Origin: Escherichia phage CMS-2020a
Direction: 5' to 3' (one strand)
Sequence record: CP053388.1
DNA length: 64,000 bases
Part shown: in pieces, positions 215 through 40,347 of the stretch
Numbering within the stretch: the stretch's first letter is position 1
Layout of the letters: each line of letters opens with the position of its first letter
Made by a program: the position numbers and the translations under genes
The notes under the pieces: model-generated
Database searches by the model: none
The model's input: the letters and a program-made list of their open reading frames with translations, nothing else
What the model was told of the DNA's origin: nothing

Positions 215-232
215 GTTCAAAAAAATCCTTGT

Positions 233-2335: not shown

Positions 2336-2384
2336 CCTGTCAGCGCCACAATGATAGTAAATTAGTACTTACTTATCCAGATAC

Positions 2385-2720: not shown

Positions 2721-2762
2721 CTCACATCCTTGTGAGACTGCCCCGGTCGGGGCAGTCGATAG

Positions 2763-7608: not shown

Positions 7609-7688
7609 GGCGTAGTGAGCAACTACACGACTGAAATAGAATCCGAGATCTATTGAGACGGTCCTTGTCCCGGATTCATCGCGGGAAA

Positions 7689-8006: not shown

Positions 8007-8061
8007 TGGTTAAAATCCTTTTAAAAGAGAGGCCCATCCTGAGCCTCTGCTTAATTACTGA

Positions 8062-8844: not shown

Positions 8845-8882
8845 TCATTGCGCTAATAGTAAGTATATACTTACCAATTGAG

Positions 8883-9239: not shown

Positions 9240-9267
9240 CAAACTTGCAAACGCTTCAATAAACACA

Positions 9268-10989: not shown

Positions 10990-11423
10990 TACTCACCGCC
11001 TTGTGCTTTCAGGATGCCTTCAATCATCTCGACAATTCCTTTCGCTTTGACACCAACCTGATTACCAATAACTCGTAGACCGGCAATACCTTCGTTGTCT
11101 GCAATGGACTCCAGCTCTTCTCGTGTGAAAGCCTGGATCTGTTTGGCCGGTTCATCTGGTGTTCCACGTTTCATTGGCACAATGTCAGGCGCTGCTGGCT
11201 CGGTAATCAGGTCTGCTGTCAATTCACCACGATCACTGTATGCGGCAGACGGAGAAACATTTTTGCCCTCTACTGTTGACGCTCGCATTGAAGCACAAAT
11301 CCTCTGCTGATCGATAAAAGGCAACTCCGCTACGGATACCCCGTTCTCGAACTGAACGCCGCACAGCATTCCCGAATAACCGGAAAATTGCGGTTCTAAT
11401 AAAACAATTTTTGCTGGTTTCAT
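10989..11423 (-). CDS. Structural protein of unknown function (possible head-tail adaptor)
   Basis: 144 aa ORF downstream of the Ig-like protein gene. Confidence 0.4.
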   Translation of the reverse strand: MKPAKIVLLEPQFSGYSGMLCGVQFENGVSVAELPFIDQQRICASMRASTVEGKNVSPSAAYSDRGELTADLITEPAAPDIVPMKRGTPDEPAKQIQAFTREELESIADNEGIAGLRVIGNQVGVKAKGIVEMIEGILKAQGGE

Positions 11424-11467
11424 AACGCTTTCTCTCCTCTTGGGCGGCTTTCGCCGCCCAATGTCGG

Positions 11468-12388: not shown

Positions 12389-12461
12389 TTCTTGCTCCTA
12401 CAAAAAGGGTGGGCGTATAGCCCACCCTTAAACATAGATAATTACTTATCTACAACACTGA

Positions 12462-13337
12462 TTAAATTTTTACATTGGTCAGTGCAGCGATAGCCTTATC
12501 GTGCTTATTCGCCAGAGAGCAGTACCACTTCACACGGGTACGTACTGCGTCTTTGTTCTGTACAGTACCAATGTTTTCAACAACGATACCTGCGTTGTCG
12601 CCGCCATACAGACCAGTAACGCCGTTCTCTTCTGACAGATGCAGGCAGTAGATGCTTGCTTTGCCAGCATCGGTCGGAATGAAGTCGTTTACGATAAACG
12701 GAACGCCGTTATGGCACAGCATCGGACGACCGAAGTTCTCCATCATGATTTCAGACGGACCTACGTTTACTGTACGCAGCAGCGCACGGTAAGCACGCAG
12801 GTGCTCTGAACGCATCATGATGCAGTCAGCACCAAGATCTTTCACCGCATCGACCAGTTCGTCGAACATGGAGAAAGTCATAGATGCACCGGCGATATCG
12901 ATCTTCTGATCTGCGTGCATCAGGCGTGGAATGCCGTCAAACGCCTTGTTGTTAGTGGTGGAGTCGCCAACAATCAGATTGCGACGGAAGGCACGAGCCA
13001 GACCTTTGACTTTCTGACGAACCTGGATAGCCAGCTGGTTGTTGGTATCAGCCATAGTGGTAGCCAGGAATTTGTCGACGTCAACGTCGCCAGCCAGAAT
13101 GCGCAGCTTCGCAACTTTCTCTTCGAAGGTTGCTGCACCTTCGGTGATGGTGTCGTTCACATCAATGAAAGTAGCTTCGCTCAGCGTTTTTTCACGGTTG
13201 TACAGATATGCCTTTGAATTAATTTTCATAAAAGGCAGGATGGCAAACAGGTCATCGCGATCGATGATAGTTTCGATCACACCCTGTTCAAGTTCGTTGT
13301 TAGACAGCTTTTCAGCTTCTTCACGCAGTAATGGCAT
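12462..13337 (-). CDS. Major capsid protein (putative)
   Basis: 291 aa ORF after the scaffold-like gene and before the decoration-like gene; assigned by gene order and size, no motif recognised. Confidence 0.55.
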   Translation of the reverse strand: MPLLREEAEKLSNNELEQGVIETIIDRDDLFAILPFMKINSKAYLYNREKTLSEATFIDVNDTITEGAATFEEKVAKLRILAGDVDVDKFLATTMADTNNQLAIQVRQKVKGLARAFRRNLIVGDSTTNNKAFDGIPRLMHADQKIDIAGASMTFSMFDELVDAVKDLGADCIMMRSEHLRAYRALLRTVNVGPSEIMMENFGRPMLCHNGVPFIVNDFIPTDAGKASIYCLHLSEENGVTGLYGGDNAGIVVENIGTVQNKDAVRTRVKWYCSLANKHDKAIAALTNVKI

Positions 13338-13362
13338 CTATCAATTCCCTTTGATTTAGATG

Positions 13363-14250
13363 TTACTTAAGTCCAATTTTCCCCAGACCGGAGGCCAACT
13401 TATCCATAGTCGACTTGTTCTTCGGTTGGGATATTGTGTAGGTCGATTTGGAATGTGAGCCTACACCCTGCTTGGCTTCGCTACGCATCAATGCGTCAGC
13501 TTCCGGATCTGCCCGCACAATGCGTTCAATCGCGGATTCAAACGGCAACGGCTTACCTTCACCGTCAACCAGAACAGCTCGTTCTTTATGACCTGCCGGT
13601 TTGTCATAACCCACTACGCTACCGTCTTCACCCACTTCAAAATGAGAACCGTAGATCACGCGGGCTTTTGCCGGGGTCATCAGAACTTTGTCACGTAGGA
13701 AGAGAGAGTTACTGAAGGAAGCGCCCACGGTCATCTCGACTAATTGAGATTTCAGTGATGCGTTTTCACTTTCCAGTGCTGTATAACGTTCGTCACGCTG
13801 TGCCAGCTCTGCCTGGTGTGCTTCGATCATCTGTTTTTTAACAGCATCGAACTCACCACGACGCTCCAGTTCAGCTTGCTCCGCCTCACGACGTGCATTT
13901 TCTGCGGCCTGTTCAGCTTCTAAAAGCTGGCGAGCACGCGCCGGGTCGATATCACCGTACTGAGCAAGCTGATCGGCCAATGTGCGCTCTTTCTCTTTGC
14001 GCTTCATGTTCTCCTTCAGCAGTTCAGCACCAGCTTTCTTGGTTTTACGAAGTTCGGCCAGTAACTCTTCCTGAGTCATGCCAGCGTATTCGTCATCGCC
14101 CTTCGGCTGCTCTTTTTGTTCACCCTGTTTGTCAGGATCTTGTGTGCTCTGCTCATTATCAGCAGCTACACCGCCAGCGCCTCCACGCTCATGCGCTTCA
14201 GCGACATCCATCAGACCACGACGGGCCAAAAGCATTTGCCACAGATTCAT
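13363..14250 (-). CDS. Scaffolding protein (putative)
   Basis: 295 aa, highly charged with a long E/A/R/Q-rich coiled-coil region; sits between portal and capsid genes. Confidence 0.5.
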   Translation of the reverse strand: MNLWQMLLARRGLMDVAEAHERGGAGGVAADNEQSTQDPDKQGEQKEQPKGDDEYAGMTQEELLAELRKTKKAGAELLKENMKRKEKERTLADQLAQYGDIDPARARQLLEAEQAAENARREAEQAELERRGEFDAVKKQMIEAHQAELAQRDERYTALESENASLKSQLVEMTVGASFSNSLFLRDKVLMTPAKARVIYGSHFEVGEDGSVVGYDKPAGHKERAVLVDGEGKPLPFESAIERIVRADPEADALMRSEAKQGVGSHSKSTYTISQPKNKSTMDKLASGLGKIGLK

Positions 14251-14271
14251 AAAAATTCCTTTTGTTACTTA

Positions 14272-15846
14272 TCACTCGTTCTCTTGAGTAGATGAGTCCC
14301 CATTCCCTCGGGGTTGATCTTGCCCGCTTTCTTGGGCTGCACCACGATAATAAGTAAGTACTGACTTATTTTCAAGGGTATTTAGATCATTTTTTGGAGG
14401 AAAATTCAAGAGATCTTTATCAAATTCCTTTTTCATCGCCTCAGTAATGTTCGGGAAAATCTTCTCAATAAGCATTTCCATCTGGTGACGACGTACAGAG
14501 TCCGGTGCCTGAAGTAATGACAGTTTCTCGGCAACAGAAAATTCATCAGTAAGGCCACGAATATCGAAACTTTCTGGATACGCAATTAAAGAGTGGTCTT
14601 CGTCCAGATCTGCCCCCATCCATTTCGCAACCAGTAGCATGATTTGGCGTTCAGCCCTTTCCAGACGCTCTGCTTTTGTGACAAGCAAGCTATTTACACG
14701 CTGGAAGTCATACATTTTTGCGGCACCAGATGAATTATCGATTCCCTGTGCGTTGTCCTGCTTCGTTCGCTCACCAGCTACACCAACTGAATGGTAGATT
14801 TCGTTAATCACCGTCTTAATCGTAGTGATGATCATCTGAGCTTGTTTCGGGTCTGGTGACAGATAAAACGGCTGGTTTCCACCTTCAGAATCGTAGGTGA
14901 AGACTCGCTTTGTGCCCATTTCAAGCACTTTAGTGTGGTTTTCATCACCAGGTAAAAGCGACTGTACCGGTATAGCCAACTGGCTAAATGTCTGATCCTG
15001 AATAATGGCATCAAGGTTTGACAGATAGTTTGCAACCGCACGATCAAGATAAGCGATATCATCGATCAACGATGGGCTGAAATACGGTGATTCACTTTCT
15101 CCAATACAATCAACAGGAAACACAGGAACTACGCCGAGATTATGCTCACCGCTATCCTCTAAAATAACTTTTGCCTGACGGCGACCTGCTCCACCAGCGC
15201 CCTTCTTCACTTCCTCACGGAACAGATACCACTCGTTTTGTGTCCACAGACGATAACGTTGGTATTCCTGACCTGTAGAAGTAAAAGGATCTGCGTCATC
15301 ACGAGCGACTTCCACAATTAACGCCCACAACATATTCCCGTCGTCGTCCCATGCCACATCCAGCATTTGCTGAGGTGAAATCCAGTAGGCGTAGGCGCGA
15401 GCATCTTTCTTTTTCTCGTCAGCTACTGACTCAACATCACCACTCATCGTGCTATCGACAACAACCCATATGCGACCGTAAATAGACGACTGCAAATCAA
15501 TAGCGGCCATAAATGAGTCAATAGAGGCATTCTGGCGAGTCGCACGTTTCCAGAAATTGCGGATCTGCTCTGGTGCCTCTTCGATATTTCTATGAATGTC
15601 TTCTTTAAAGAGATATTTGTTGATGAGGTTTACCACCTCACGAGTGTGGTTGAAGCGATAAGCACGTTCAACTCGCTCCTTAAACTCCTGATCTCCCTCT
15701 TTAAAGTAACGAAAGATATTGTCTGTAAACCAACCACGCCCGCCAGCGTAAGTGCTGGCGAGGAAGTCCCAATGTTCTTTTTTCTTTTCGTATTCCGGGT
15801 GGCGTCGCGCCACCAGATCCTTAATTTGTTTGTCGTTCAATTCCAT
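14272..15846 (-). CDS. Portal protein
   Basis: 524 aa ORF immediately downstream of the terminase large subunit; size and position typical. Confidence 0.7.
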   Translation of the reverse strand: MELNDKQIKDLVARRHPEYEKKKEHWDFLASTYAGGRGWFTDNIFRYFKEGDQEFKERVERAYRFNHTREVVNLINKYLFKEDIHRNIEEAPEQIRNFWKRATRQNASIDSFMAAIDLQSSIYGRIWVVVDSTMSGDVESVADEKKKDARAYAYWISPQQMLDVAWDDDGNMLWALIVEVARDDADPFTSTGQEYQRYRLWTQNEWYLFREEVKKGAGGAGRRQAKVILEDSGEHNLGVVPVFPVDCIGESESPYFSPSLIDDIAYLDRAVANYLSNLDAIIQDQTFSQLAIPVQSLLPGDENHTKVLEMGTKRVFTYDSEGGNQPFYLSPDPKQAQMIITTIKTVINEIYHSVGVAGERTKQDNAQGIDNSSGAAKMYDFQRVNSLLVTKAERLERAERQIMLLVAKWMGADLDEDHSLIAYPESFDIRGLTDEFSVAEKLSLLQAPDSVRRHQMEMLIEKIFPNITEAMKKEFDKDLLNFPPKNDLNTLENKSVLTYYRGAAQESGQDQPRGNGDSSTQENE

Positions 15847-15872
15847 TTGAATAACCTTAGATAACTACTTAC

Positions 15873-17129
15873 CTATCGAGAACCACCAAGAATAACACGG
15901 TTTTTGACTGGATACCTACGATGTACTGGATAGCCCAATGCGTCTGCACTATGCTCAATGCCACCTGTCTTATCCATATCTCGTGTTCCAGGCTTGTAGA
16001 TGACTTTTTCCAGTGAATCAATCAAATGCTTGCACTTCGGATCGATATACAGCCGGATATCTCCAGATGCGGACATCAGCATTCGGTTAACAGCATTAAC
16101 ACGATCCGCAATTGGCGGGTGCTTTTTCGAATAATCGACACGTAAGAATCCCTTCTCTTTGAATATGTCTACGTCAGACTCCCCACGAGCATGTTGGCGA
16201 TAAGCACCTGCCGGATCTGGAAATACCGTTACCTGTGATTTCCAGCGCCAGAAGCGTCTCTCAAGCTCATCACAAACTTCTGCCGTGTTAGAGGAAAAGA
16301 GCACCAATTCATCAATTGCCCATAGCTCACCATTTGGCTGAGGTTGCAAAATTACTGAAGACATCGGGTCAATGTTGAAGTCCTGCCCTACCCATATAGG
16401 CAACCGAGGGTTGAACTGAAGCGGTTTTACATGCACGTTACGATCGAACGGGTAGTAAACGCGCCCGGACATGTTCTCAAAGCTGGCCAGGTACTCCTGA
16501 GCGAACGATTTGGGGTCCATATCGTTCTTAGCAGCTTCAATTTCCGCCGTAGGTACAAACGGAGAATCGGCAGTTACAAACTGCCAGCTCTTCCACTGTC
16601 CCTTTCTTTGCAGCTCTACGTTCTGGCCTATCGTCCACAGTTTGTGAAATTCCGAGAAGCCTTTTGGCGTACCAATGATCAGTGCACCGCCGCGTGTCGA
16701 TGAAAGAGTAGGTCGTAACACCTTGTACCAGGTGTCAGCCTTCATATCCTGAAATTCATCAAGCACTACAAAATGCAACGCTACGCCGCGCAGAGTGTCA
16801 GGCTTATCAGCACCTTTGAGGGCGATCTCCGAACCGTTCTTCAACACGATTGTCATCGTGGTGTCGTTCTTTTTCCTAACCCACTTACGAGGCAGAACTT
16901 CCTGTAGATCGTCCCACAAAATCTGGCGAGCCATCTGGTAAGTAGGAGCGACATACCAGACCCTTTGCTTTTTTTCCTTTGCCGCCGCACGAATAATAGT
17001 GGAGATCGACAACCGGGATTTTCCCCAGCGTCGACCAGCACAAACAACTTTAAATCGATGCGGAGACTGGAAGACTTTCATCTGTCCAGAATGCAGTTGC
17101 ACAAGACTGAGCGAGGACGGGATTGCCAT
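15873..17129 (-). CDS. Terminase large subunit
   Basis: Walker A (VVCAGRRWGKS) and Walker B (HFVVLDEFQD) in the N-terminal ATPase, acidic residues in the C-terminal half; ATGA overlap with the upstream small subunit. Confidence 0.85.
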   Translation of the reverse strand: MAIPSSLSLVQLHSGQMKVFQSPHRFKVVCAGRRWGKSRLSISTIIRAAAKEKKQRVWYVAPTYQMARQILWDDLQEVLPRKWVRKKNDTTMTIVLKNGSEIALKGADKPDTLRGVALHFVVLDEFQDMKADTWYKVLRPTLSSTRGGALIIGTPKGFSEFHKLWTIGQNVELQRKGQWKSWQFVTADSPFVPTAEIEAAKNDMDPKSFAQEYLASFENMSGRVYYPFDRNVHVKPLQFNPRLPIWVGQDFNIDPMSSVILQPQPNGELWAIDELVLFSSNTAEVCDELERRFWRWKSQVTVFPDPAGAYRQHARGESDVDIFKEKGFLRVDYSKKHPPIADRVNAVNRMLMSASGDIRLYIDPKCKHLIDSLEKVIYKPGTRDMDKTGGIEHSADALGYPVHRRYPVKNRVILGGSR

Positions 17130-17761
17130 TATTCGTCCTCCCCTTCACTTCCATCATCTGTCGCATCAAATTCGCTTAGAGCTTCTTCTTCCAACGTCTC
17201 AAGCAATTCGTCATCGATGATTTCAGGCTCGTCGTCTTCCTGACGTAATTTCGCCACCTGGGAAGGCGTAAGCTCACCAAATACCAGGTTCGGAATTTCT
17301 TCCTCGTCATTTTCCGCATGATCCATGCCCAATGCTTTGGACGAAACTTCAAAGCATTTTGCAAGGGTATTACTGGCTCTCTGTAAGCTCTTGAGAGAAT
17401 CCTCAATCGCCCCTAAAGGCTTACCCTCACGTTTGGCCGTAGTGACTTCGACCATCACCATCTGCCCCAACGCATACGCCCAGCCGTCATAACGTGTACG
17501 ACGTTCTTCTATCTTTTCCGCACGGGCTTTAGCGCGAAGCTCTGCGTCAGATTTAAGAGACTCACGAACCATCTTCCCAACAGAGTCCGCGCCTTTCTCT
17601 AATCCTCGCTTTTTGAAATGTCTGGAGAGTGTTTCACGACGAATGCCGTACTCTTCCTCCAGCTTTGAGAGTGTATATTCGCCTGACGTCCATTTGGCTT
17701 CAGCTTCGGCCCACTCCGCTGGTGTCAGGCGAGTTTTTACCTCGTCTTTTTCGACCGTCAT
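17129..17761 (-). CDS. Terminase small subunit (putative)
   Basis: 210 aa, N-terminal HTH-like segment (YTLSKLEEEYGIRRETLSRHFKKRG), very acidic C-terminus, coupled to the large subunit. Confidence 0.6.
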   Translation of the reverse strand: MTVEKDEVKTRLTPAEWAEAEAKWTSGEYTLSKLEEEYGIRRETLSRHFKKRGLEKGADSVGKMVRESLKSDAELRAKARAEKIEERRTRYDGWAYALGQMVMVEVTTAKREGKPLGAIEDSLKSLQRASNTLAKCFEVSSKALGMDHAENDEEEIPNLVFGELTPSQVAKLRQEDDEPEIIDDELLETLEEEALSEFDATDDGSEGEDE

Positions 17762-17867
17762 AGATCCCTCTAAAACACACAGAGCGCGTCCATGCGCTCT
17801 AAAACAACTTGTTTACTGCATCTGCTAACCAACTTGTTTTCTGGGGTGTTTAATTAGGTCTGGCATG

Positions 17868-17922
17868 TCTTACGAAGCCTGCTTCCGTATATATTTAATA
17901 AGTTACTTATTATTTATATATA
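17868..17922. promoter_or_regulatory. Imperfect 55-bp palindrome, copy 1 (probable bidirectional terminator or regulator site)
   Basis: cctgcttccgtatatat...atatatacagaagcagg with an AT-rich centre; near-identical copy at 47953-48020. Confidence 0.5.
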
Positions 17923-29806: not shown

Positions 29807-30131
29807 GACCGAAGGCTGACCGTAGGGGTGTTACGGGGGGATAAAATCAGGAGTTGAATAAATACGAAAAAGGAGGCGACACCTCTCCTTCCCTCCCCAC
29901 TTATACATACCTGGCTTCTTCGCTATACATGTTGTGTTTTCTTCGTGTTTTATCTGTCTCAACCTCTCTATAGGCGTTAATGCTCACTCCTTCCAGAACG
30001 TTCTATACGGCGACTATTTCTGTTGGTGAATTGGGTGTGTTGTTTTCTCTGTCGGTGTATGTGGTTTCGTTCGTTTTGCGGTGGTTCTTCTAGGGGGTGT
30101 TCTCGTCGTTTTGGTGATTGTTCTTCTCCAT

Positions 30132-30490
30132 GTATGGAGTAATGGCAGGTGGGCGATTCCTTTCGTTGTTGTGTTTGAGTTGTTTGTCTGGAGTGCGTGA
30201 AGGGCTTTTGTAGTTATTCGTGTATTGGGTAATGGCGTTTCCCGTGATTGTTATGTTTCGTGTCTTTTGGGATTGAGAGAATCCTTGTGGTTACAGGCTT
30301 CGTTGGGGTTTCAGTGATTCTGGTGTTTCTTCGCTGTTTGGGTAATGGCCTGTCGTGGGTATCGCGCGTATGAATGTTTTCGGATTGCCTGTGAAAGTTA
30401 GGTTGGTTGTCCGGTAGCCTGGGGAGAAGAGGTGGGTCTTTTCGGTAGCCTGCCATAAAGAGGTTGGTTGTTTTTGGGAATGGCATGTGT
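30132..30490. repeat. Degenerate tandem repeats in a GT-skewed non-coding tract
   Basis: ggagtaatggcaggtggg (30132), ttgggtaatggcgtttcc (30222), ttgggtaatggcctgtcg (30338), ttgggaatggcatgtgtg (30473) about 100-130 bp apart; only short low-complexity ORFs. Confidence 0.5.
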
Positions 30491-30864
30491 GTTATTTAGT
30501 TGTTTTGTTATACCTGAAAATGAGTTGTTTATATGGTTGTGTAACGCAACGGGAGCGATTTTGAGCGTGTGTTTTTGTTGGTAGTGTGTTGGGTCGTCTG
30601 TGGTGAAAATTGGACGCTGTGGCGCTGTCTGCTGCGTAGAGTTACGGGTATAAGAAGTGATGTGTGAAAACGTCAATTTTTTAGACCAAATCGGGTGAAA
30701 GCGTTGACGTTTCGTTGATCTGTTATTTAGTTGTTTTCTTATTTGTATAAACAACCATAACCTATTGATATTTAAAGATATGATTGCAGCTATGGAAGGG
30801 GAGTAGTGGCGATCAACGGATTCTTATAGAAAAGAATCAAATTGTGACCGCCATTATCAATGTT

Positions 30865-31599
30865 TTACATAGTTTTGTTTAGCAGAGAGAGAATTTCATC
30901 ACTAATTTCACTCGCCTGTTTTATAGCCAATGCAGTTACCTCTTCTATGGTTGGTGACTGTTGATGCTCATGTTTGGTTTCAGTTATGACAATGTGTTCT
31001 TCACCTGAATTTGCGCATAGTGCCGCATTGACGATAAGGTTTGAGTAAGAATTTAGCAGAGCACTGTTGATAAACGCTTTCACGGTATTACTGTCTGCAC
31101 CAAATACATCTTTTCTGACCGCTTCAGCCTCACAGCGAACCCCTGCAGCAACATCGTGAAGAACATGTATGGCCTTGGGGCTTGTTTGTTCACAGTACTC
31201 AATCATTATTGTCGAATTGTTCTGTTCAACAAACGATCTGATGCCTGACGATTCACCCATAGCATCGAAGGCAGCGTGACCCGCACTGGTAGAGATATCT
31301 TCATAGAGTTCTTCATCGCTATCTTTTTCTTCAGGTGTCGAGGTGTCTTCATCGTCGTAATAGATATTGCCTTTAATCAGTGTTTTGGACACTTGATATA
31401 AACAATAAGAAACGAGATTTAAGCATTGGATTTTAGCTGTATTGTCCTTTGTCGCCTCGCTCTTCAGTTCTTTCGCTTCTTCAGTAAGGCTGTTGATAAG
31501 ACTTTGTATTTTTTCCAACGCGTTAGGCGCACACTCCGCGTTGTCCATAAAGAATTTATAACCAGTCCCAGGGATTTCTAAACTTTTCAACTTTTTCAT
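30865..31599 (-). CDS. Hypothetical protein
   Basis: 244 aa ORF downstream of the 99-aa gene. Confidence 0.5.
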   Translation of the reverse strand: MKKLKSLEIPGTGYKFFMDNAECAPNALEKIQSLINSLTEEAKELKSEATKDNTAKIQCLNLVSYCLYQVSKTLIKGNIYYDDEDTSTPEEKDSDEELYEDISTSAGHAAFDAMGESSGIRSFVEQNNSTIMIEYCEQTSPKAIHVLHDVAAGVRCEAEAVRKDVFGADSNTVKAFINSALLNSYSNLIVNAALCANSGEEHIVITETKHEHQQSPTIEEVTALAIKQASEISDEILSLLNKTM

Positions 31600-31644: not shown

Positions 31645-31944
31645 TTACCAGTTCCAGCACTCAAGCCCTTCAACGACTGGTGCTCCACAATCAAAATGTA
31701 CAGAGTCAAAGCCTACATCAAGTACTTTCTGAATGTTAGCAATCGCGCCTTCGGATATACCATATCGACGCAAGTCGTCTTTCCAGACATCATCCTGTAA
31801 CCCGGCGTGAACAATACAACCGCCATCAATTTGTGAAACCCAATCCAGCTCATTGCTTGCGATCATGAATCGGCGAGCATCTTCCTCTGATGTATGAGAT
31901 GAACTGATCAATGCCACCTGGTAGGCTTGGGTAATGTTCAACAT
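31645..31944 (-). CDS. Hypothetical protein
   Basis: 99 aa; two copies of motif A upstream (31957-31972 and 32007-32022). Confidence 0.5.
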   Translation of the reverse strand: MLNITQAYQVALISSSHTSEEDARRFMIASNELDWVSQIDGGCIVHAGLQDDVWKDDLRRYGISEGAIANIQKVLDVGFDSVHFDCGAPVVEGLECWNW

Positions 31945-31956
31945 TTCAACTACTCC

Positions 31957-32022
31957 AAAACAAGTTGTTTTCTTATGTGGCTTATTATCTCAATCAACAA
32001 AAGGTAGAAAACAAATTGTTTT
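31957..32022. promoter_or_regulatory. Tandem motif A sites (AACAAGTTGTTTTC type)
   Basis: aaaacaagttgttttc and gaaaacaaattgtttt upstream of the 31944 start; same motif upstream of at least ten other genes. Confidence 0.5.
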
Positions 32023-32053
32023 AGGGCTTGTGTAAATCAGGAGGGATTGTGTC

Positions 32054-32083
32054 TATATGAAAATGCCCGGCGTGTTGCCGGGC
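32054..32083 (-). terminator. metG rho-independent terminator
   Basis: Minus strand hairpin gcccggcaacacgccgggc followed by attttcatata. Confidence 0.7.
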
Positions 32084-32105
32084 ATTGTGAAAAATGGTTG
32101 TTTAG

Positions 32106-34139
32106 TTACTTAACTTGGTGGCCTGGTTTAGCACCAGCATCCGGGCTTAACAGGAAGATATCTTTTCCGCCAGGGCCAGCAGCCATCACCATGCCTTCGG
32201 AGATACCGAAGCGCATTTTACGCGGTGCCAGGTTAGCCACCATAATGGTGTGACGACCAATCAGTGCCTGTGGATCTGGATAAGCGGAACGAATGCCTGA
32301 GAAGACATTACGTTTTTCTCCGCCGAGATCCAGTGTCAGGCGCAGCAGTTTGTCAGAACCTTCGACAAACTCCGCGTTTTCAATCAGCGCCACACGCAGG
32401 TCAACTTTGGCGAAGTCGTCAAAGGTGATGGTTTCCTGAATCGGGGCGTCAGCCAGTGGGCCAGTTACCGGTGCAGCTGTGGCTTTCACTTCTTCTTTGG
32501 ATGCTTCCACCAGTGCTTCCACCTGTTTCATATCGATACGGTTATACAGTGCCTTGAACGGATTCACTTTATGGCCCAGCAGCGGTTGCTGGATACCATC
32601 CCAGGTCAGTTCTGTATTCAGGAATGCTTCTGCACGTTCAGTCAGTTTCGGCAGTACCGGTTTCAGGTACGTCATCAGCACGCGGAACAGGTTAATGCCC
32701 ATAGAGCAAATCGCCTGCAGATCGGCATCGCGTCCTTCCTGCTTCGCCACCACCCACGGAGCCTGTTCATCAACATAGCGGTTAGCCAGGTCAGCCAGTG
32801 CCATGATTTCACGGATAGCTTTGCCAAATTCGCGGCTTTCCCATGCTTCGCCAATCACTTCAGCGGCATCAGTAAAGGTTTTGTACAGTTGCGGGTCAGC
32901 CAGTTCGCTTGCCAGCACGCCGTCAAAACGCTTGTTGATAAAGCCTGCATTACGGGAGGCCAGGTTAACCACTTTGTTCACGATATCGGCATTCACGCGC
33001 TGAACGAAATCTTCCAGGTTGAGATCGATATCATCAATGCGCGAAGAGAGTTTCGCAGTGTAGTAGTAACGCAGGCTGTCGGCGTCAAAATGATTCAGCC
33101 AGGTGCTGGCTTTAATAAAGGTGCCGCGAGACTTGGACATCTTCGCACCGTTCACCGTCACATAGCCATGAACAAACAGGTTGGTCGGCTTGCGGAAGTT
33201 GCTGCCTTCTAGCATGGCAGGCCAGAACAGGCTGTGGAAGTAAACGATATCTTTGCCGATGAAGTGGTACAGCTCGGCGGTGGAGTCTTTCTTCCAGTAT
33301 TCGTCGAAGCTGGTAGTGTCGCCGCGTTTGTCGCACAGATTCTTGAAGGAACCCATGTAGCCAATCGGCGCGTCCAGCCAGACGTAGAAGTATTTGCCCG
33401 GTGCGTTCGGAATTTCAAAACCGAAGTAAGGTGCGTCACGGGAGATATCCCACTGTTGCAGGCCAGATTCAAACCACTCCTGCATTTTGTTTGCCACCTG
33501 CTCCTGCAACGCACCGCTGCGGGTCCATGCCTGCAACATTTCGCTGAAAGAAGGCAGATCAAAGAAGAAGTGTTCGGAATCACGCATTACCGGTGTAGCG
33601 CCAGAAACTACCGATTTCGGCTCGATCAGTTCCGTCGGGCTGTATGTCGCGCCGCAGACTTCACAGTTATCGCCGTATTGATCCGGCGCTTTACATTTCG
33701 GGCATGTGCCTTTTACAAAACGGTCCGGCAGGAACATGCCTTTTTCCGGGTCGTACAGCTGAGAGATGGTGCGGTTTTTAATAAAACCGTTCTCTTTCAG
33801 GCGAGTGTAGATAAGCTCGGACAACTGACGGTTCTCTTCGCTGTGCGTCGAGTGATAGTTGTCATAGCTGATGTTAAAGCCTGCGAAATCAGTCTGATGT
33901 TCCTGACTCATTTCGCCAATCATCTGCTCCGGTGTGATACCAAGCTGCTGTGCTTTCAGCATGATCGGCGTACCGTGGGCATCGTCGGCACAGATGAAAT
34001 TAACCTCGTGGCCGCGCATTCGCTGGTAACGAACCCAGACATCAGCCTGGATGTGCTCCAGCATATGGCCGAGGTGGATTGAGCCGTTAGCGTACGGCAG
34101 CGCGCACGTCACCAGAATTTTCTTCGCGACTTGGGTCAT
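32106..34139 (-). CDS. metG: Methionyl-tRNA synthetase
   Basis: 677 aa from [29 protein letters not shown] (HIGH motif) through KMSKS to the C-terminal dimerisation/tRNA-binding domain; matches E. coli MetG nearly residue for residue from memory. The track ORF (to 34268) adds a spurious 43-aa extension. Confidence 0.95.
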
Positions 34140-34296
34140 AGTAGGCATTACTTCTTTGTAGTGAAAAGGGGCTTGATAGTAACAAAATGGCCTTATGTCT
34201 GCCATGTGATAACAGCATTTCTCATAAATGATTAAATGTCGTAGCTGGAGTACACTACAAGGCGACAATTGCGCAAATTAAAATAAAGGAGACGGG

Positions 34297-35397
34297 ATGA
34301 GCGAGTCCAAATCGCCGGATGCCCTGAGAGCAATGGTAGCCGGTACGCTGGCTAATTTTCAGCACCCAACCCTGAAACACAACCTGACTACGCTTAAAGC
34401 GTTACACCATGTTGCGTTGATGGATGACACACTGCATGTCGAACTAATCATGCCTTTCGTGTGGAATAAGCCTTTTGAAGACCTGAAAGAGCAATGTAGT
34501 GGTGATCTGCTCCGTATCACTGGCGCAAAGGCTATTGACTGGAAGCTGTCGTACAACATTGCCACGCTTAAGCGTGTCAAAAACCAACCAGGCATTAATG
34601 GCGTTAAGAACATTATCGCCGTCAGCTCAGGCAAGGGCGGCGTGGGTAAATCCTCCACGGCGGTAAACCTGGCACTGGCGTTGGCTGCTGAAGGTGCGAA
34701 AGTTGGTATTTTGGATGCCGATATCTATGGTCCATCAATTCCAACCATGCTGGGCGCGGAAAACCAACGTCCAACCTCACCTGACGGTACTCACATGGCA
34801 CCTATCATGTCTCATGGCCTGGCAACCAACTCTATTGGTTATCTGGTCACCGACGACAATGCAATGGTGTGGCGTGGACCGATGGCCAGCAAGGCGCTGA
34901 TGCAGATGTTGCAGGAAACATTGTGGCCTGATCTGGACTATCTTGTTCTCGATATGCCGCCGGGCACTGGTGATATTCAGTTGACGCTGGCGCAGAACAT
35001 TCCTGTAACTGGTGCTGTTGTGGTAACTACGCCGCAAGACATCGCGCTGATCGATGCGAAGAAAGGCATTGTGATGTTCGAAAAAGTCGAAGTGCCGGTA
35101 CTGGGTATCGTTGAAAACATGAGTGTGCATATTTGCAGTAACTGCGGTCATCACGAGCCAATTTTTGGCACCGGTGGCGCACAGAAACTGGCCGAGAAAT
35201 ACAACACGCAGTTGTTAGGCCAAATGCCACTTCATATCTCTCTTCGTGAAGATCTGGATAACGGAACACCAACCGTTATTAGTCGTCCAGATAGCGAATT
35301 TACAGCTATTTATCGTGACCTCGCAGATCGCGTTGCCGCCCAAATGTATTGGCAAGGTGAAGTAATACCTGGCGAAATCGCATTCCGCGCAGTGTGA
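34297..35397 (+). CDS. apbC: Fe-S cluster carrier ATPase ApbC/Mrp
   Basis: Deviant Walker A SGKGGVGKSSTAVNLA, CxxC motif (ICSNCGHH); divergent from metG exactly as in the E. coli mrp-metG locus. Confidence 0.9.
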   Translation: MSESKSPDALRAMVAGTLANFQHPTLKHNLTTLKALHHVALMDDTLHVELIMPFVWNKPFEDLKEQCSGDLLRITGAKAIDWKLSYNIATLKRVKNQPGINGVKNIIAVSSGKGGVGKSSTAVNLALALAAEGAKVGILDADIYGPSIPTMLGAENQRPTSPDGTHMAPIMSHGLATNSIGYLVTDDNAMVWRGPMASKALMQMLQETLWPDLDYLVLDMPPGTGDIQLTLAQNIPVTGAVVVTTPQDIALIDAKKGIVMFEKVEVPVLGIVENMSVHICSNCGHHEPIFGTGGAQKLAEKYNTQLLGQMPLHISLREDLDNGTPTVISRPDSEFTAIYRDLADRVAAQMYWQGEVIPGEIAFRAV

Positions 35398-35423
35398 TAA
35401 AAAGGCGGTGCATTGCACCGCCT
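35395..35423 (-). terminator. Terminator hairpin between apbC and the UmuD'-like gene
   Basis: Palindrome aggcggtgcattgcaccgcct; minus-strand reading is followed by tttttatca. Confidence 0.55.
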
Positions 35424-35434
35424 AATCAGTTCTC

Positions 35435-35824
35435 CTACATCACGGGACAATCATCAAACTCGCCACTTCTTGCGTCGTTGATAATGTGAGTGATCACACC
35501 AAACACGGCATTGCTGCCCGTGCATCCATCGTCATCCTTTGGCAATGCTTCCTTCTTACCGGTTCTTAAATCCTCCAGATGCTGACGTGGGTACTTCCGG
35601 TATCTTTTTACGCGATATTCCCCATCCAGAGCGCATACAAGCAGAGAACCATCAACCGGGGTAAGTGAGGAATCGACCACCAGCAATGCACCCTGTAATA
35701 TTCCCTCACGATGATGACTATCAGCTGCCCTCATGAAGTAGGTCGCTGAAGGATGTCTAATTATCTGCTGATCAAGAGAAATACGGCTCTCAACATAATC
35801 CGCCGCAGGAGAAGGGAAGCCCAT
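35435..35824 (-). CDS. umuD: UmuD'-like protein (pre-truncated UmuD analog, P1 HumD-like)
   Basis: Starts MGFPSPAADYVE, i.e. at the Gly after the UmuD Cys-Gly cleavage site; Ser and Lys of the catalytic dyad conserved in alignment; LexA box immediately upstream. Confidence 0.8.
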   Translation of the reverse strand: MGFPSPAADYVESRISLDQQIIRHPSATYFMRAADSHHREGILQGALLVVDSSLTPVDGSLLVCALDGEYRVKRYRKYPRQHLEDLRTGKKEALPKDDDGCTGSNAVFGVITHIINDARSGEFDDCPVM

Positions 35825-35840
35825 AATACTCGCCTCTTAA

Positions 35841-35860
35841 TACTGTATACACATACAGTA
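35841..35860. promoter_or_regulatory. LexA (SOS) box
   Basis: TACTGTATACACATACAGTA = CTGT-N8-ACAG palindrome, 17 bp upstream of the UmuD'-like start codon. Confidence 0.8.
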
Positions 35861-36180
35861 TATATTGAAGCTATATATTTTTGAACTCTATCTCTTAAAA
35901 AAGATGTTAATAAGATGCTAACTATTGAAAGGCATAAATATATACAATTCAAACAAACGTTATTTTTAACAAATTTTTTCTTCCCATTGACTTTTTCGAA
36001 CGCCTTGTCCGGTCTAAAGTGCGCAGAAGTCACTTTTTCCTTCCTGAGTTATCCACAGGCTTATGCACTTGCATGAAAAATCTATTCACACTATCTTAAT
36101 TCGCAAGACACTGATGTTGCAGTATTGAGGGTATGTTGGGTTAAAAATAGACATTAAAAAGCCCAGTTGACTAGGCTGGG

Positions 36181-36212
36181 CTTTTTAAAAGGAAACAGAG
36201 TTTGCGGCTCTG
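36181..36212 (+). terminator. Rho-independent terminator (plus orientation) in the AT-rich non-coding region
   Basis: Hairpin agcccagttgactaggctgggct followed by ttttt. Confidence 0.5.
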
Positions 36213-36582
36213 TTCCTGAGCCATAAGTATCTGGCGACTGAGCTAAGATTAACCGAATGTACTGGATTCATCAAGAAACGTTGAGTGGTCATACTAGGTA
36301 ATAATGACCATTTACTAAACATCGTTGTTCTCAAAGAAGATTTAAGTCCAGGTTTTTGGTGACTCTAAAACCTTACCTTAACTCGAAATCGTGCCGTAAG
36401 TATCTGGCGACTACAGATATTGCAACTGCAAAGGCAAGCTCAAAGGTATTTGCAGCTAGGTGCGATAAAACTAAGTGAGGCCTATAGTGCTTAACTTACT
36501 TTTCAAAATCGTGCCGCCTATGTTCGCAATCATCGAAGCGATCATTGAGTACGTCAACCAGCGCCCATAATGCTAGTTGTTA

Positions 36583-36612
36583 CCGGCCCCATCCAAATGG
36601 GGCCATTTTATT
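36583..36612 (+). terminator. Rho-independent terminator (plus orientation)
   Basis: Hairpin ggccccatccaaatggggcc followed by attttatt. Confidence 0.45.
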
Positions 36613-36619
36613 GTATTGA

Positions 36620-37252
36620 CTACATACTTTCTGATCTAATTGAGTTGTTCACTGCTCTGGCAATCTTCTCCCGCAATTGCTGCGCTCCGTGGTACTGAAC
36701 CGCAATATCCCGCAACTCGTTCACCAGTTCTCTAATCTGGTGATCTTTAAGCTCATTATTTGGGTGATGGGTAACAACTCTGGTTAATTCACCCTTGTCT
36801 TTTGCTCTTACGTATGCAGCTCTTGTGCATTCGACCCATGTATTACCGCCTACATTAACTTCGTAGATTAGGCTGGACTTATCTGTCAATTCGGAACAAA
36901 TACGGGCCGTGGTCTGGCAACTAGAGCATTCGCAGTTATCGCGGAAACCGTGATCTACCGGTCGAGAAAGAGGTTTAACTTTTTCATCCAACTTCATCAC
37001 AGCATCGTGATAAGCGTTCCAGCCGTCATCTTTACCAAGTTGATAAATCTCTGAAGGCTCCATGTAGTCTATATCGCAACCTTCTTCATCCGATCTATCT
37101 GGTCGCTTCCCTGGTAATCGCTCATAAAAACGTTTTCTGTCTCGACGTTCGGCTCTCAGAGCTAACGCAAGAAGTTGCTCAAGCGAGGTATTTGCACCAG
37201 CAATAATTTCATTGAGAATATCTTCTGTGAGATCTTTCGCTACCGTGCTCAT
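36620..37252 (-). CDS. Hypothetical protein
   Basis: 210 aa ORF coupled to the upstream gene. Confidence 0.5.
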   Translation of the reverse strand: MSTVAKDLTEDILNEIIAGANTSLEQLLALALRAERRDRKRFYERLPGKRPDRSDEEGCDIDYMEPSEIYQLGKDDGWNAYHDAVMKLDEKVKPLSRPVDHGFRDNCECSSCQTTARICSELTDKSSLIYEVNVGGNTWVECTRAAYVRAKDKGELTRVVTHHPNNELKDHQIRELVNELRDIAVQYHGAQQLREKIARAVNNSIRSESM

Positions 37253-37632
37253 TTATCTCTCTCAGTATGTTGCGATGGCGTAAATTTGACGACATCAAAT
37301 ATTTTGGATGGCATCAACTTTATCCGCGAGCTTAGTTCGGCTCTTCTCTGTAATGCGGTTAATAATGTTTTCGTTCTGACGCCTTCGTGTATCCTCATCC
37401 CTGGCACAAGAACTACATCGCAGGGGAGATGCTCAGGTGACAAATCATTTTGGGCATCGCTAATCAGTCGTGTAATCTCTCTTTCAAGCCGACCGCCTAG
37501 CTCTGTTTTAGTGCAATGTTCTGACCAATCGCCAGCCTCAAGCAGCGCGAGAATGCTTAAAATATCGTCCAATAGAACGGTAGTATTATCGACTTCCTTC
37601 TGAAACTCACCGGCTACTGATTTATGCATCAT
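37249..37632 (-). CDS. Hypothetical protein
   Basis: 127 aa ORF, ATGA-type overlaps on both sides. Confidence 0.5.
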   Translation of the reverse strand: MMHKSVAGEFQKEVDNTTVLLDDILSILALLEAGDWSEHCTKTELGGRLEREITRLISDAQNDLSPEHLPCDVVLVPGMRIHEGVRTKTLLTALQRRAELSSRIKLMPSKIFDVVKFTPSQHTERDK

Positions 37633-38282
37633 TCGTCATCCTCATCCGAGTCATCCTCATCACAGGATGAGAGTAGTGGGTTAGTCATTCGCCCTACTTG
37701 AGTGGCGTAGCCACGCCGACAGAGATTGCGCAGCACACTGTATATTTCGAACATCTCGGTTCGTTCATCGCCAACATCAAGCTCAGATGCTATAGCGTGG
37801 CATTCAGTCGCGAGAGCCGATATTTTCTGAAATAACTCTGCATTATTCACTGTTCGACTCCTGCGGCGTTCTGGTAGTGACATCCAGTGTGTGACATTGC
37901 TAATCAGACCATATTCATTAGTTTGAGGATGGTTGCCGTTAGCGTCTCCGTATTTAAGACTCTCCATAAAGCCATAATGCCTATCACCATTAACGCTCAC
38001 AAAGCCGTAATAAGCAGGTATAACGCCGATCTCACACGTAACCAGTAAAGGAAAACTAGTTCTCCAATTTAGCTCGCCAATTACAGGCATTCGCTCACTA
38101 CAGCTTATCCAACCATCCTTAGATGCGGCTGTATTGGCATAGGCCTTACGGTGCTTCTGTAGCTCTGCTGCAATCGCTCTCACGACTTCAACTGGTGCTC
38201 TTGCAGCAAACTCAATGTTGGTGATCAGCTCATTAAGATATTTCTCGCTTGGGTAGCATTTCTTATTGTTAACGGTGGTCAT
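37629..38282 (-). CDS. Hypothetical phage protein (possible DUF551-like)
   Basis: 217 aa with WISCSERMP ... WMSLPE segments and an acidic tail; family assignment from memory only. Confidence 0.4.
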   Translation of the reverse strand: MTTVNNKKCYPSEKYLNELITNIEFAARAPVEVVRAIAAELQKHRKAYANTAASKDGWISCSERMPVIGELNWRTSFPLLVTCEIGVIPAYYGFVSVNGDRHYGFMESLKYGDANGNHPQTNEYGLISNVTHWMSLPERRRSRTVNNAELFQKISALATECHAIASELDVGDERTEMFEIYSVLRNLCRRGYATQVGRMTNPLLSSCDEDDSDEDDE

Positions 38283-38467
38283 TAGGCAGCTCTCTCAACA
38301 ACAAGCAATTCGTCGTAGTCATAATCAGTTTCGGAACCATCCGTACCGAACAGAGTCACTTTGTCATTTTCCATCCAAAAAGATTTAACCGCACATTGTT
38401 GACCTTTAGATGTTATGAGCACATCACCAGGGATTACGTCTTCAGCGCGAACCTCTAGTGTTCTCAT
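38282..38467 (-). CDS. Small hypothetical protein
   Basis: 61 aa ORF coupled between neighbours. Confidence 0.35.
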   Translation of the reverse strand: MRTLEVRAEDVIPGDVLITSKGQQCAVKSFWMENDKVTLFGTDGSETDYDYDELLVVERAA

Positions 38468-38994
38468 CGTGCTGCCCCCTCTTTGGTGAAAATGCCTGCT
38501 GCAATGCTGTTTATGATGCTGTCAGTGCATGGAGTAGAAAGCTGGGCATCTCCAGCAATTTTCATGACCTCAACATCCGCATATCGAATACCGAGGTGTA
38601 TCAGACCGGCTATACCTGACTTAAGTCGAACATTTTCCATAAACAGATCTTTTTCCCGCTGTTTAGCGCCTTCCAACTCCATCGACAATTTTTCCAACTG
38701 CTCTTTATGCTTCTTGTATTCCTGATACGCGTGCCAAGACTGACCTTTGCGCACACTATCAGTGATATCAGCAACCTGCTCTGGTGTTAGCGTGGTCAGT
38801 GGCTGTGCTGGAAAAATCATCACTTGCCCGGCATCCCAATCAAAACCCGCCTGAATTGACTGAACCTCAACTGATGGTGTTGAACCGATGCGACCAGGCG
38901 AATGAACAACGATCGTTACATCCATATCGCGACGATGGCTGTGGTTGTTGGACAAAATACGATTCACCAACTCAGAAAATTTGGATAATTTCAT
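38464..38994 (-). CDS. Hypothetical protein (start adjusted to [10 protein letters not shown])
   Basis: Internal Met at 38994 gives an ATGA overlap with the upstream gene; the track ORF extends to 39123. Confidence 0.45.
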
Positions 38995-39314
38995 GCTGAT
39001 CTCTCTTTCTCTCCCCGGATAATTCTGTTGCACACATCCACACACTCGTCGCAGATGAAAACGGCGTCCCCAGCAATTAACTTTTTGACGGCGTACTGGG
39101 ATTTGTTGCAGAAGCTGCAACAAAGTGTTCGCCTGACTGATAAGGATGGAGCGCCAGATGTCAGCCGCTCCATATCGTTCTTGCGACGCAATATCACACG
39201 GCTGAACTCAACCAGTTTCTCCGGGGATATCTCCTCCTCCGTAGCGAGCGTCTCTAGTCGTTCGAGTATGTTGAAGGCTTTTTCTTGGGTAATAGCAGAG
39301 TGCGATGTGGTCAT
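38991..39314 (-). CDS. ClpX N-terminal zinc-binding-domain-like protein
   Basis: C-terminal [38 protein letters not shown] closely matches the E. coli ClpX C4 zinc-finger region ([37 protein letters not shown]); no AAA+ domain follows. Confidence 0.7.
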
Positions 39315-39712
39315 TTTCTTTCACCTTCAATGTTCGTGGCGCTGGCACGATTGTCCTTGCGAAGAAGAGCGGCTATGCGCTTACTTCCATCCGAGATAAC
39401 GCCCTCGTAATACTCACGCTGCTCGTTGAGTTTTGATTTTGCCAACTCCAGTTGTTTTGTTAGTTCCGCAATACGGCAAACATCGTTGATACGCGTTTCC
39501 TCTAATGCGTTGATCTCATCCAGTAGTGCCAGCACGGTTTCTGGTCCGGCCAGAAATTTGAAGGCGTTGAGGGCATCAATATCAACACCGCTATCTTTAA
39601 GTTCCTGTTCGCATATCAGATCATCATCAACTGGCAACATTAACAGGCGTTCCATTGCCGGAATTGCACGCTCTGCCGCCTCACGCAGTGCCTGATAGTC
39701 AATCTTGCTCAC
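39311..39712 (-). CDS. Hypothetical protein
   Basis: 133 aa, coupled. Confidence 0.45.
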
Positions 39713-40209
39713 TGGATGACTCCTTTACGAAGCTGTTCAGCAATACTTACGCATATCTCTGCGCCTCTAATCAGCCCCGGAACGTTCTTGTTTGGCCCAA
39801 CTTCACCATCAACAAAATCAATCATCGCGTTACGAGCCATATCCACGCCCTGCGCACGTACTTCAGCCAGAAAAGCATCGGTGGCTGGAGTCTCCGTCAA
39901 TTCGCTAACCCAATTATCTCCGTGTTCCTCGGCACACATCGCATCGAATGCTCGCTCAGATTCTTTCAGGGCTGCATTCTCCGCCGCTAATGCGTCTCTT
40001 TGCGCCAGCAACTTCTCAATTTCGGCAGCCATGTAGTAACCAACCATAGCGAAGACGGCAAAAGAGTTATCTGCCTCATCAGGCGACACTGAGGCCATTA
40101 GCAGGCCATCGTAAAAATCGTGACTCCCATTGGTGATCGCCACCGCATAGGAGTCGTGGTTCTCGCGCTTGTGAATGAGAACTACGGGATTTTCGATTTT
40201 GTTACTCAT
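39709..40209 (-). CDS. Hypothetical protein
   Basis: 166 aa; motif A variant at 40282-40296 upstream. Confidence 0.5.
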   Translation of the reverse strand: MSNKIENPVVLIHKRENHDSYAVAITNGSHDFYDGLLMASVSPDEADNSFAVFAMVGYYMAAEIEKLLAQRDALAAENAALKESERAFDAMCAEEHGDNWVSELTETPATDAFLAEVRAQGVDMARNAMIDFVDGEVGPNKNVPGLIRGAEICVSIAEQLRKGVIQ

Positions 40210-40347
40210 GTGTTTTTCTCTTCTTTGCTGTTACATAAGCACTACCAAGTGCTGGTTTATTTTCACAAATAAGAAAAGGTAGAAAACAATTTATTTAAGG
40301 CCACAACTTATGGCCTTTATTTATTCATGCCGAAGGATTTGTAGCGT

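Follow-up and report, generated by a model that had tools for sequence, protein, structure and literature searches.

A long-established metG-apbC cassette in Escherichia phage CMS-2020a, a phage-plasmid of the SSU5 supergroup

The 64,000-nt stretch of Escherichia phage CMS-2020a considered here (from sequence record CP053388.1; "the window", in which all coordinates are counted) carries, at approximately 32022–35434, a divergent pair of genes of chromosomal type: metG, for methionine-tRNA ligase (MetRS), and apbC/mrp, for an iron-sulfur (Fe-S) cluster carrier. The cassette is real and long established, being neither recent E. coli DNA nor an artefact. The best overall explanation, given a probability of about 0.85, is that it is a long-resident accessory cassette of a phage-plasmid and would act as a lysogenic-conversion module; its identity and its history, as described below, are held to be close to certain. 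The metG-apbC cassette is already annotated in public records and described in the literature. Added here are its exact bounds, a different cargo found in the slot that it occupies, evidence that metG and apbC differ in ancestry, and evidence for gene conversion, points that leave the basic picture, already public, unchanged.

The element and its cassette

The window is a phage-plasmid of the Cyrano/pLF82/pWPMR2 type, belonging to the E. coli/Shigella clade of the SSU5 supergroup. It is colinear throughout with Escherichia phage Cyrano (pLF82) at 97–98.5% identity: positions 1–17894 match the Cyrano terminase, portal, capsid, tape measure and tail genes at 98.3–98.5%, and 17.9–63.8 kb matches, at 97–98%, the half of Cyrano with ParB, RepA, ribonucleotide reductase (RNR), ThyX, dihydrofolate reductase (DHFR) and early/accessory genes. 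Many genes of the element support replication (RNR, ThyX, DHFR, MazG), and its close relatives in databases are all circular plasmids of about 105–120 kb. Cyrano is itself an SSU5-like phage-plasmid, with virions seen, 39-fold induction by ciprofloxacin, and 5.5 copies per cell (PMC9928086). Because the window is colinear with this phage-plasmid, the flanks of the cassette are phage-plasmid backbone and not chromosomal prophage arms around a normal metG locus, an arrangement that the initial annotation had considered; the left flank is found on plasmids only, without a chromosomal match in 5,426 complete E. coli genomes.

The cassette comprises, from left to right, the metG terminator, metG, a divergent promoter region, apbC, and a hairpin following apbC. 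Its bounds (~32022..35434) come from comparison with plasmid pTB212 (below) and match almost exactly the segment, 32047–35434, that the initial annotation had marked as chromosomal-type DNA carried as phage cargo. The GC content is 50.9%, versus 44–45% in the flanks and 46.5% for the element. No tRNA genes, and hence no linked copy of tRNAMet, were found in the window, and 29–38 kb has no match in Rfam.

NCBIfam and Pfam models and alignment with E. coli K-12 identify metG (32106..34139, minus strand) as a full-length gene for a MetRS of 677 amino acids, including the C-terminal tRNA-binding/dimerization domain. The true start codon (ATG, 34139) yields the N-terminus MTQVAKK; the mechanical open reading frame (ORF) reaches further, to a TTG at 34268. 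The protein scores 1019.4 bits against the NCBIfam equivalog NF001100 (cut-off 587, residues 4–677 covered), 698.7 against TIGR00398 (cut-off 336) and 162.8 against TIGR00399 (cut-off 116.65), and contains the Pfam domains tRNA-synt_1g, Anticodon_3 and tRNA_bind (PF01588, residues 581–674). In the alignment, the HIGH (HLGH) and KMSKS motifs and the Zn-knuckle cysteines (CPKC...CEVC) are the same as in K-12. Its 98.7% identity to the characterized E. coli enzyme, together with a ratio of non-synonymous to synonymous substitution rates (dN/dS) of 0.01–0.02, suggests that it charges both tRNAMet and tRNAfMet.

The apbC gene (34297..35397, plus strand; assigned from NCBIfam, Pfam and motifs) encodes a P-loop nucleoside triphosphatase of 366 amino acids, with 759.3 bits against the NCBIfam equivalog NF008669 (cut-off 348) and E = 2.4e-102 against PF10609. 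The deviant Walker A motif (GKGGVGKS) and the CXXC motif (CSNC) are both intact, and the N-terminus is three codons shorter than in E. coli (366 vs. 369 amino acids). Identification as MinD was rejected, the minD_bact model giving just 57 against a cut-off of 213. The divergent MetRS-ApbC pair in native arrangement, noticed in the initial annotation, is thus borne out as two full-length genes that pass equivalog cut-offs.

As in K-12, where mrp is on the minus and metG on the plus strand (b2113–b2114), the two genes are transcribed divergently, from an intergenic region of 157 bp (34140..34296) versus 131 bp in K-12. On alignment with chromosomal loci, the metG-proximal ~75 bp is Escherichia-like and holds a conserved block with TACTAT (34176–34181, minus strand); the apbC-proximal part has a Citrobacter/Salmonella-type layout, including a block absent from most aligned Escherichia genomes. 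The region is 99.4–100% conserved among seven phage-plasmid alleles and 66–77% identical to any chromosome. By homology with the chromosomal locus, it is a putative bidirectional promoter and leader region.

Downstream of metG, an intrinsic terminator hairpin on the minus strand (32062..32086; 10-bp stem, 5-nt loop, then UUUUCAU; -19.1 kcal/mol, z = -7.4) occupies the same position as in chromosomal metG, with a sequence matching none of the 12 aligned Escherichia, Citrobacter, Salmonella and Kluyvera chromosomes. A second, GC-rich hairpin (35403..35423; -17.3 kcal/mol on the plus strand, -17.9 kcal/mol on the minus strand) lies between apbC and the convergent humD. Its U-tract (UUUUUA) is on the minus strand alone, facing humD, so that it seems a better terminator for humD than for apbC. 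In the allele called S1NGR, both arms of this second hairpin have changed in a way that keeps them paired (GGCGGTG/CACCGCC to GGTGGTG/CACCACC), a compensatory pair of substitutions that argues for selection on the structure. It belongs to the cassette, as pTB212 bears a different hairpin at this place.

Distribution and allele lineage

The search of related phage-plasmids for the same insertion, proposed in the initial annotation, gave a clear answer. At a coverage of at least 80% of the segment, the cassette is present in 202 PLSDB plasmids (191 from Escherichia, 6 from Shigella, and a few others), 187 of them at 95% identity or more, and its neighbors are the same across all 202 and in phage Cyrano. 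Among 5,426 complete E. coli genomes it occurs at 223 plasmid places (~4% of complete genomes), nearly equal to the 226 genomes with the backbone marker, so that the cassette is nearly fixed in this phage-plasmid clade. In IMG/VR, 35 loci carry this metG.

Identity to the window is bimodal in the same 5,426 genomes: some 215 plasmid copies are at 95–99.4%, every E. coli chromosome is at ~89.5–90.3%, and none lie between. Against K-12, the cassette gives one alignment (88.35% identity) running from the metG stop codon to near the apbC stop codon, and nothing outside the genes aligns. Within it, metG is 94.0% identical in DNA and 98.7% in protein (668 of 677 residues), and apbC 82.2% in DNA and 94% in protein; the initial impression of a MetRS "essentially identical to E. 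coli MetG" holds for the protein and fails for the DNA.

A donor was sought using one genome per species of GTDB. Among the best 80 of 484 matches, nothing exceeded 88.8% in DNA (an E. coli-named record) or 95% in ApbC protein, with Citrobacter at 85% or less and Salmonella at 83% or less over the pair. One record encountered, CP170191.1, titled Enterobacter hormaechei strain B56, has an mrp-metG identical to K-12 (no differences in either gene) and looks mislabeled or contaminated. A phage record, "Salmonella phage S.Kent 1-2-1", was set aside as a 5.3-kb sequence at 84%, the identity level of the Salmonella chromosome; "Pseudomonas phage Y5", an UNVERIFIED record without annotation, matches 0.6 kb of metG at 76%. 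Also rejected was essential-gene addiction, in which the host would lose metG and come to rely on the plasmid: a chromosomal match is present in all 5,426 genomes.

Ancestry, gene conversion, and selection

The two genes tell discordant stories. For metG, synonymous divergence (dS) from Escherichia species is 0.30–0.40, the level seen between species in the genus, as against 0.76–0.95 from Citrobacter and Salmonella; for apbC, dS to Escherichia is 1.2–1.8, as large as that to Citrobacter. In neighbor-joining trees, phage-plasmid apbC forms one clade (100/100 bootstrap replicates) on a long stem, sister to the whole of the sampled Escherichia (100/100). Phage-plasmid metG also forms one clade (97/100), but is nested within Escherichia, the chromosomal Escherichia without these alleles being monophyletic in 0/100 replicates. 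GC content at third codon positions (GC3) follows the same division: in apbC it is 0.518, versus 0.59–0.62 in Escherichia, and is shifted toward the 46.5% GC of the element, and in metG, at 0.608, it has barely changed.

Differences among phage-plasmid alleles are also unevenly spread. The window and K-12 differ at 122 sites in metG; of these, the S1NGR allele has the K-12 state at 73 and the Shigella sonnei allele at 38, in the latter grouped into runs, among them a stretch of 344 bp without any difference from K-12. At the 240 sites in the intergenic region and apbC, these alleles have the K-12 state at only 4 each. The metG of phage-plasmids is thus mosaic, in a pattern that fits gene conversion with the host copy. 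For the window's own metG, the patch at 32331–32680 was looked at for a fresh conversion tract and none was found there, the closest listed chromosomal alleles (CFT073-type) being 94.9% identical.

Both genes are under strong purifying selection on the element. Between the window and Cyrano, metG has 59 synonymous and 2 non-synonymous changes (dN/dS 0.009; 0.009–0.023 across the comparisons made), and apbC has 24 synonymous and no non-synonymous changes (dN = 0, dS = 0.10). This near-absence of non-synonymous change argues that both are kept by selection on the element.

A history that would account for these patterns begins with an ancient capture of the pair from a lineage on the stem of Escherichia or sister to it. 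After capture, apbC and the apbC-side intergenic region would have diverged, their base composition drifting toward the lower GC of the element, and metG would have been overwritten repeatedly, in patches, by gene conversion from the chromosomal metG of its hosts. Slower synonymous evolution of a highly expressed metG could explain part of the discordance between the two genes, although the ratio is far beyond that in chromosomal comparisons.

Two phage-plasmid contigs in IMG/VR (IMGVR_UViG_2671181056_000013, at contig positions 4002–14135, and IMGVR_UViG_2740892421_000017) contain mrp-metG arrays, in the order partial metG, humD, phage-plasmid apbC, truncated metG, complete chromosomal-type mrp-metG, DUF5983. 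The chromosomal-type unit is 96.7% identical to K-12, and its apbC is only 83% identical to that of the window. The arrays show amplification and fresh capture of host DNA beside the old cassette, in relatives and not in this window.

State of the MetRS allele

The MetRS of the window has no phage-plasmid-specific substitution. Compared with housekeeping MetRS of Escherichia, there are 4–10 non-synonymous differences, none in the catalytic motifs, and the proteins are 98.7–99.4% identical. Where it departs from K-12, it mostly shows states that are common in Escherichia, the exceptions being I442, which E. albertii and Citrobacter share, and D565A. The last (codon 32446–32448) is private to the window among 7 aligned phage-plasmid alleles (the window included) and 24 IMG/VR alleles, D565 being the usual state in the latter. 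Alleles of the S. sonnei type have D565E and A410T, with G134C in two of the three sampled; none of these three changes is present in the window. Residue 565 is four residues before ETIT 569–572, deletion of which is a known antibiotic-tolerance allele of MetRS (PMC11004401); this closeness is suggestive at most, and is treated as a coincidence, nothing more. A MupA-like role, as an auxiliary MetRS resistant to an inhibitor, was rejected: the enzyme is essentially wild-type, and the MupA model gives 33 bits against a cut-off of 1900.

Possible roles of the cassette

The role favored here is that of a lysogenic-conversion ("moron"-type) module, giving the host extra MetRS and ApbC. The dose of both would scale with how many copies of the element a cell contains (~5.5 in LF82) and would be higher after SOS induction. 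That this is the function, with persistence arising through the extra metG, is put forward tentatively, at somewhat less than even odds. In the cassette itself, a host-type leader and -10 block are conserved, terminator hairpins are present, and the operator-like motif of the element, AAACAANTTGTTT, is absent from 32022–35434. In the Cyrano lysogen, the apbC orthologue CYRAN_99 is expressed at 9-fold prophage background and is listed as a moron (PMC9928086 Table 1). For metG, one paper, citing Tam et al. 2024, ties the gene on pWPMR2 of S. sonnei to multidrug-resistant lineages, and its expression to a sub-population predisposed to third-generation cephalosporin resistance (PMC12452169); in another, which also gives clade context, antimicrobial persistence is credited to phage-plasmid metG (bioRxiv 10.1101/2025.09.12.675607).

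Several points weigh against this interpretation. The window MetRS has no substitution specific to phage-plasmids in a comparison of seven alleles and the IMG/VR sample, and to our knowledge ApbC has no established role on the element. The persistence phenotype of pWPMR2 metG comes second-hand, through citing papers. Cyrano metG (CYRAN_100) reaches ~16 fragments per kilobase per million (fpkm) in overnight lysogeny broth (LB), ~1.6-fold background, and is not listed as a moron (PMC9928086); in Dulbecco's modified Eagle's medium (DMEM) and macrophages it is near background, comparison levels in LF82 being ~92 fpkm for apbC and ~148 fpkm for humD (PMC9928086 S1 Table). Part of this low signal may be due to reads that also map to the copy on the chromosome, which is 94% identical, or to the growth phase sampled. 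Finally, Wood et al. 2024 (PMC11004401) found more persistence when the capacity or the editing of MetRS was lowered, which is not what an extra, near-wild-type copy would obviously bring about.

Another possibility is that the pair serves the lytic cycle, providing extra Met-tRNA/fMet-tRNA charging and Fe-S delivery for the burst of phage protein synthesis following induction. The near-silence of Cyrano metG in the lysogen as sampled fits expression, or an effect of dosage, after induction; the element already holds RNR, ThyX, DHFR and MazG; and the cassette lies in the early/accessory region, adjoining SOS-induced humD. This role is nevertheless considered unlikely, as the cassette seems to have retained a promoter of its own, of host type, and contains none of the operator motifs of the element, apbC is constitutively expressed in the lysogen, and SSU5, its Klebsiella relatives and pTB212 manage without the pair. 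Nor do we know of evidence that host MetRS limits phage growth.

A third possibility is that the main selected effect of this 3.3-kb segment is recombination with the chromosome, allowing allele exchange, integration or amplification, and the spread of metG tolerance alleles. The clustered chromosomal-type tracts in phage-plasmid metG alleles, and the mixed phage-plasmid and chromosomal-type units in the arrays of some relatives, are what such a role would produce, but recombination may be a mere by-product of homology. Strong purifying selection on the non-recombining apbC indicates that the proteins themselves matter; no allele of the phage-plasmid type is found on chromosomes (215 records at 95% or more, versus 223 plasmid places); and in one 350-bp patch no chromosomal allele comes within 95% of the window. 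As the main reason for keeping the cassette, recombination is therefore improbable, with perhaps one chance in ten. The conversion, lytic-support and recombination roles are not mutually exclusive.

It is conceivable, if doubtful, that phage-plasmid metG acts as a mobile recombination partner, shuttling metG variants between strains and species and seeding tandem mrp-metG arrays; such shuttling would be possible because this metG is ~94% identical to the chromosomal gene and exchanges tracts with it. If so, the shuttled variants could include tolerance-type changes in the 565–572 linker (D565 has changed independently in two phage-plasmid alleles), the phage-plasmid would spread tolerance alleles of a housekeeping gene horizontally and tune their dosage, and apbC, carried along without recombining, would be under selection for a role of its own, so far undescribed.

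The initial annotation favored recent capture; on this view, part of the mrp-metG locus of the E. coli host would have been acquired lately and carried as passive cargo. In keeping with this, MetRS is 98.7% identical to that of K-12, gene order and orientation are native, and the two IMG/VR contigs do join an added chromosomal-type mrp-metG (96.7% to K-12) to the phage-plasmid unit. For the window the idea is extremely improbable and is abandoned here: there is a single copy, at ~90% DNA identity to every E. coli chromosome and well separated from them in the bimodal distribution; homology to K-12 ends at both stop codons, leaving no flank or terminator of K-12 type; the cassette is common to more than 200 plasmids whose backbones differ by 5–10%; and apbC falls outside Escherichia on its long stem, with dS of 1.2–1.8 and an ameliorated GC3. 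An assembly chimera or rearrangement junction, or a chromosomal prophage beside a normal metG locus, was conceivable given the abrupt GC step (51% vs. 44–45%) and a near-identical chromosomal paralogue inviting mis-assembly, but its probability is practically negligible, since more than 200 finished circular plasmids, sequenced in unrelated projects, have exactly the same junctions, as does phage Cyrano; the plasmid alleles group in a clade of their own (97–100% bootstrap); no chromosome in the 5,426 complete E. coli genomes was found to carry the left-flank gene; and the chromosomal neighbors yehE and yehF are absent.

Flanks, cargo slot, and operator-like motif

The cassette lies between two backbone genes. 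To its left is a gene for a 99-amino-acid DUF5983 protein (31645..31944, minus strand; Pfam PF19419). Among the 5,426 complete E. coli genomes, 226 have this gene on a plasmid and none on a chromosome, and homologues occur in SSU5 and Klebsiella phage-plasmids. To its right is humD (35435..35824, minus strand), a pre-processed UmuD'-like gene (NCBIfam HumD equivalog, 221.7 bits, cut-off 120) that is 85–87% identical to humD of P1, P7 and D6. In the humD promoter is a LexA (SOS) box, TACTGTATACACATACAGTA, recognized by reading of the sequence (35841..35860); it perfectly fits the LexA box consensus, CTGT-N8-ACAG. Transcripts of Cyrano humD rise from ~7 to ~12 log2 units in macrophages (PMC9928086 S1 Table).

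In plasmid pTB212 (NZ_CP033252), the same DUF5983 and humD genes are separated by a DUF4145 gene of 744 bp. Homology of pTB212 with the window stops at 32021 and restarts at 35435, and because of these breaks the bounds of the cassette are placed at ~32022–35434, both hairpins included. The DUF4145 gene of pTB212 (3378–4310 of that plasmid), with a hairpin of its own, is in the exact slot of metG-apbC, showing that the position is a swappable cargo slot between SOS-regulated humD and DUF5983. In SSU5 and Klebsiella pJN2-26, other genes are found upstream of the DUF5983 homologue, and metG, apbC and humD are absent there.

Two copies of the palindromic operator-like motif AAACAANTTGTTT bracket the DUF5983 promoter (31958–31970 and 32009–32021), the second abutting the left end of the cassette. 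The window has 12 sites (17802–55785), against 0.44 expected by chance, in accord with the initial report of a repeated motif at the phage genes of the left flank. That report also placed on the right a UmuD'-type gene, which proved correct, and early genes sharing the same motif; the nearest site to the right of the cassette is at 40284, with none in 32022–40283. The motif is probably the operator of an element-encoded regulator. Its sites, which include 17802, 28840, 31958, 32009, 44823 and 45552, are often paired before leftward early/accessory genes.

Two nearby stretches have unusual features of their own. Between humD and the next gene are ~750 bp without ORFs or Rfam matches (35870–36620). 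This stretch holds two terminator-like hairpins (36154–36188 and 36585–36604), a 14-nt repeat (36383 and 36503) and a longer direct repeat of 20 nt (GCCRTAAGTATCTGGCGACT; 36220 and 36393); small RNAs or binding sites could be located here. On the other side, 29950–30700 is extremely strand-skewed (GC skew +0.37 and AT skew -0.35 over 30001–31000), with a G/T-rich plus strand and no tandem repeats detected. It overlaps small minus-strand ORFs at 30214–30486 and 30398–30754, the second of which is taken to be the equivalent of CYRAN_103.

Relationship to known systems

The closest known relatives are other members of the same clade. A 108-kb S. sonnei plasmid (LR213459) has the same cassette at the same site with the same neighbors, 97.7% identical over 32047–35434, and a 108,107-bp IMG/VR contig has the same layout; both probably represent the pWPMR2 type. 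Backbone clade, cassette and insertion site are shared with the S. sonnei element; the S. sonnei allele differs in having G134C, A410T and D565E and the K-12-type converted tract, whereas that of the window is near wild-type, with its private D565A. In Cyrano (pLF82, OV696614; CYRAN_99 and CYRAN_100) the cassette is 97.4% identical and has the same neighbors; small backbone segments are replaced relative to the window, and the record annotates ApbC as "septum site-determining protein MinD".

The K-12 mrp-metG locus (b2113–b2114) has the same genes, divergent orientation, MetRS length and metG-proximal leader block. It differs in its terminators, in its yehE/yehF flanks, and in an unrelated layout of the apbC-side intergenic region, and the pair in the window is on a multicopy phage-plasmid. 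SSU5, the prototype, and Klebsiella pJN2-26 belong to the same backbone family and have homologues of the DUF5983 protein (43–46% amino acid identity) and of the DUF4942 methylase in the same early/accessory region; the cargo there is different, including HD phosphohydrolase, LprI, YdfZ and DUF1380.

More distant parallels are found in other aminoacyl-tRNA synthetases carried by mobile elements and viruses. The plasmid-borne isoleucyl-tRNA synthetases MupA and MupB are second synthetases on mobile elements, highly divergent and insensitive to a specific inhibitor; the MetRS of the window is likewise a mobile second synthetase, but is near-housekeeping, its active site being unchanged. The aminoacyl-tRNA synthetases encoded by giant viruses and a number of large phages belong to anciently diverged viral lineages, for which a role in support of the phage has been proposed. 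The metG of the window is likewise a virus-coded translation component, but remains recognizably of Escherichia type and still recombines with the host.

Implications

The clade in question is carried by ~4% of complete E. coli genomes and by a large share of epidemic multidrug-resistant Shigella sonnei. The second metG that it brings has been proposed to determine antimicrobial persistence in real-world settings, and persistence can come before resistance. Within this element the cassette is of long standing and under selection, and not a one-off capture. It includes an equally conserved ApbC, which the papers citing pWPMR2 (PMC12452169, bioRxiv 10.1101/2025.09.12.675607) do not mention. Since exchange of sequence between metG and its host counterpart continues, mosaics must be allowed for when alleles of "phage-plasmid metG" are typed.

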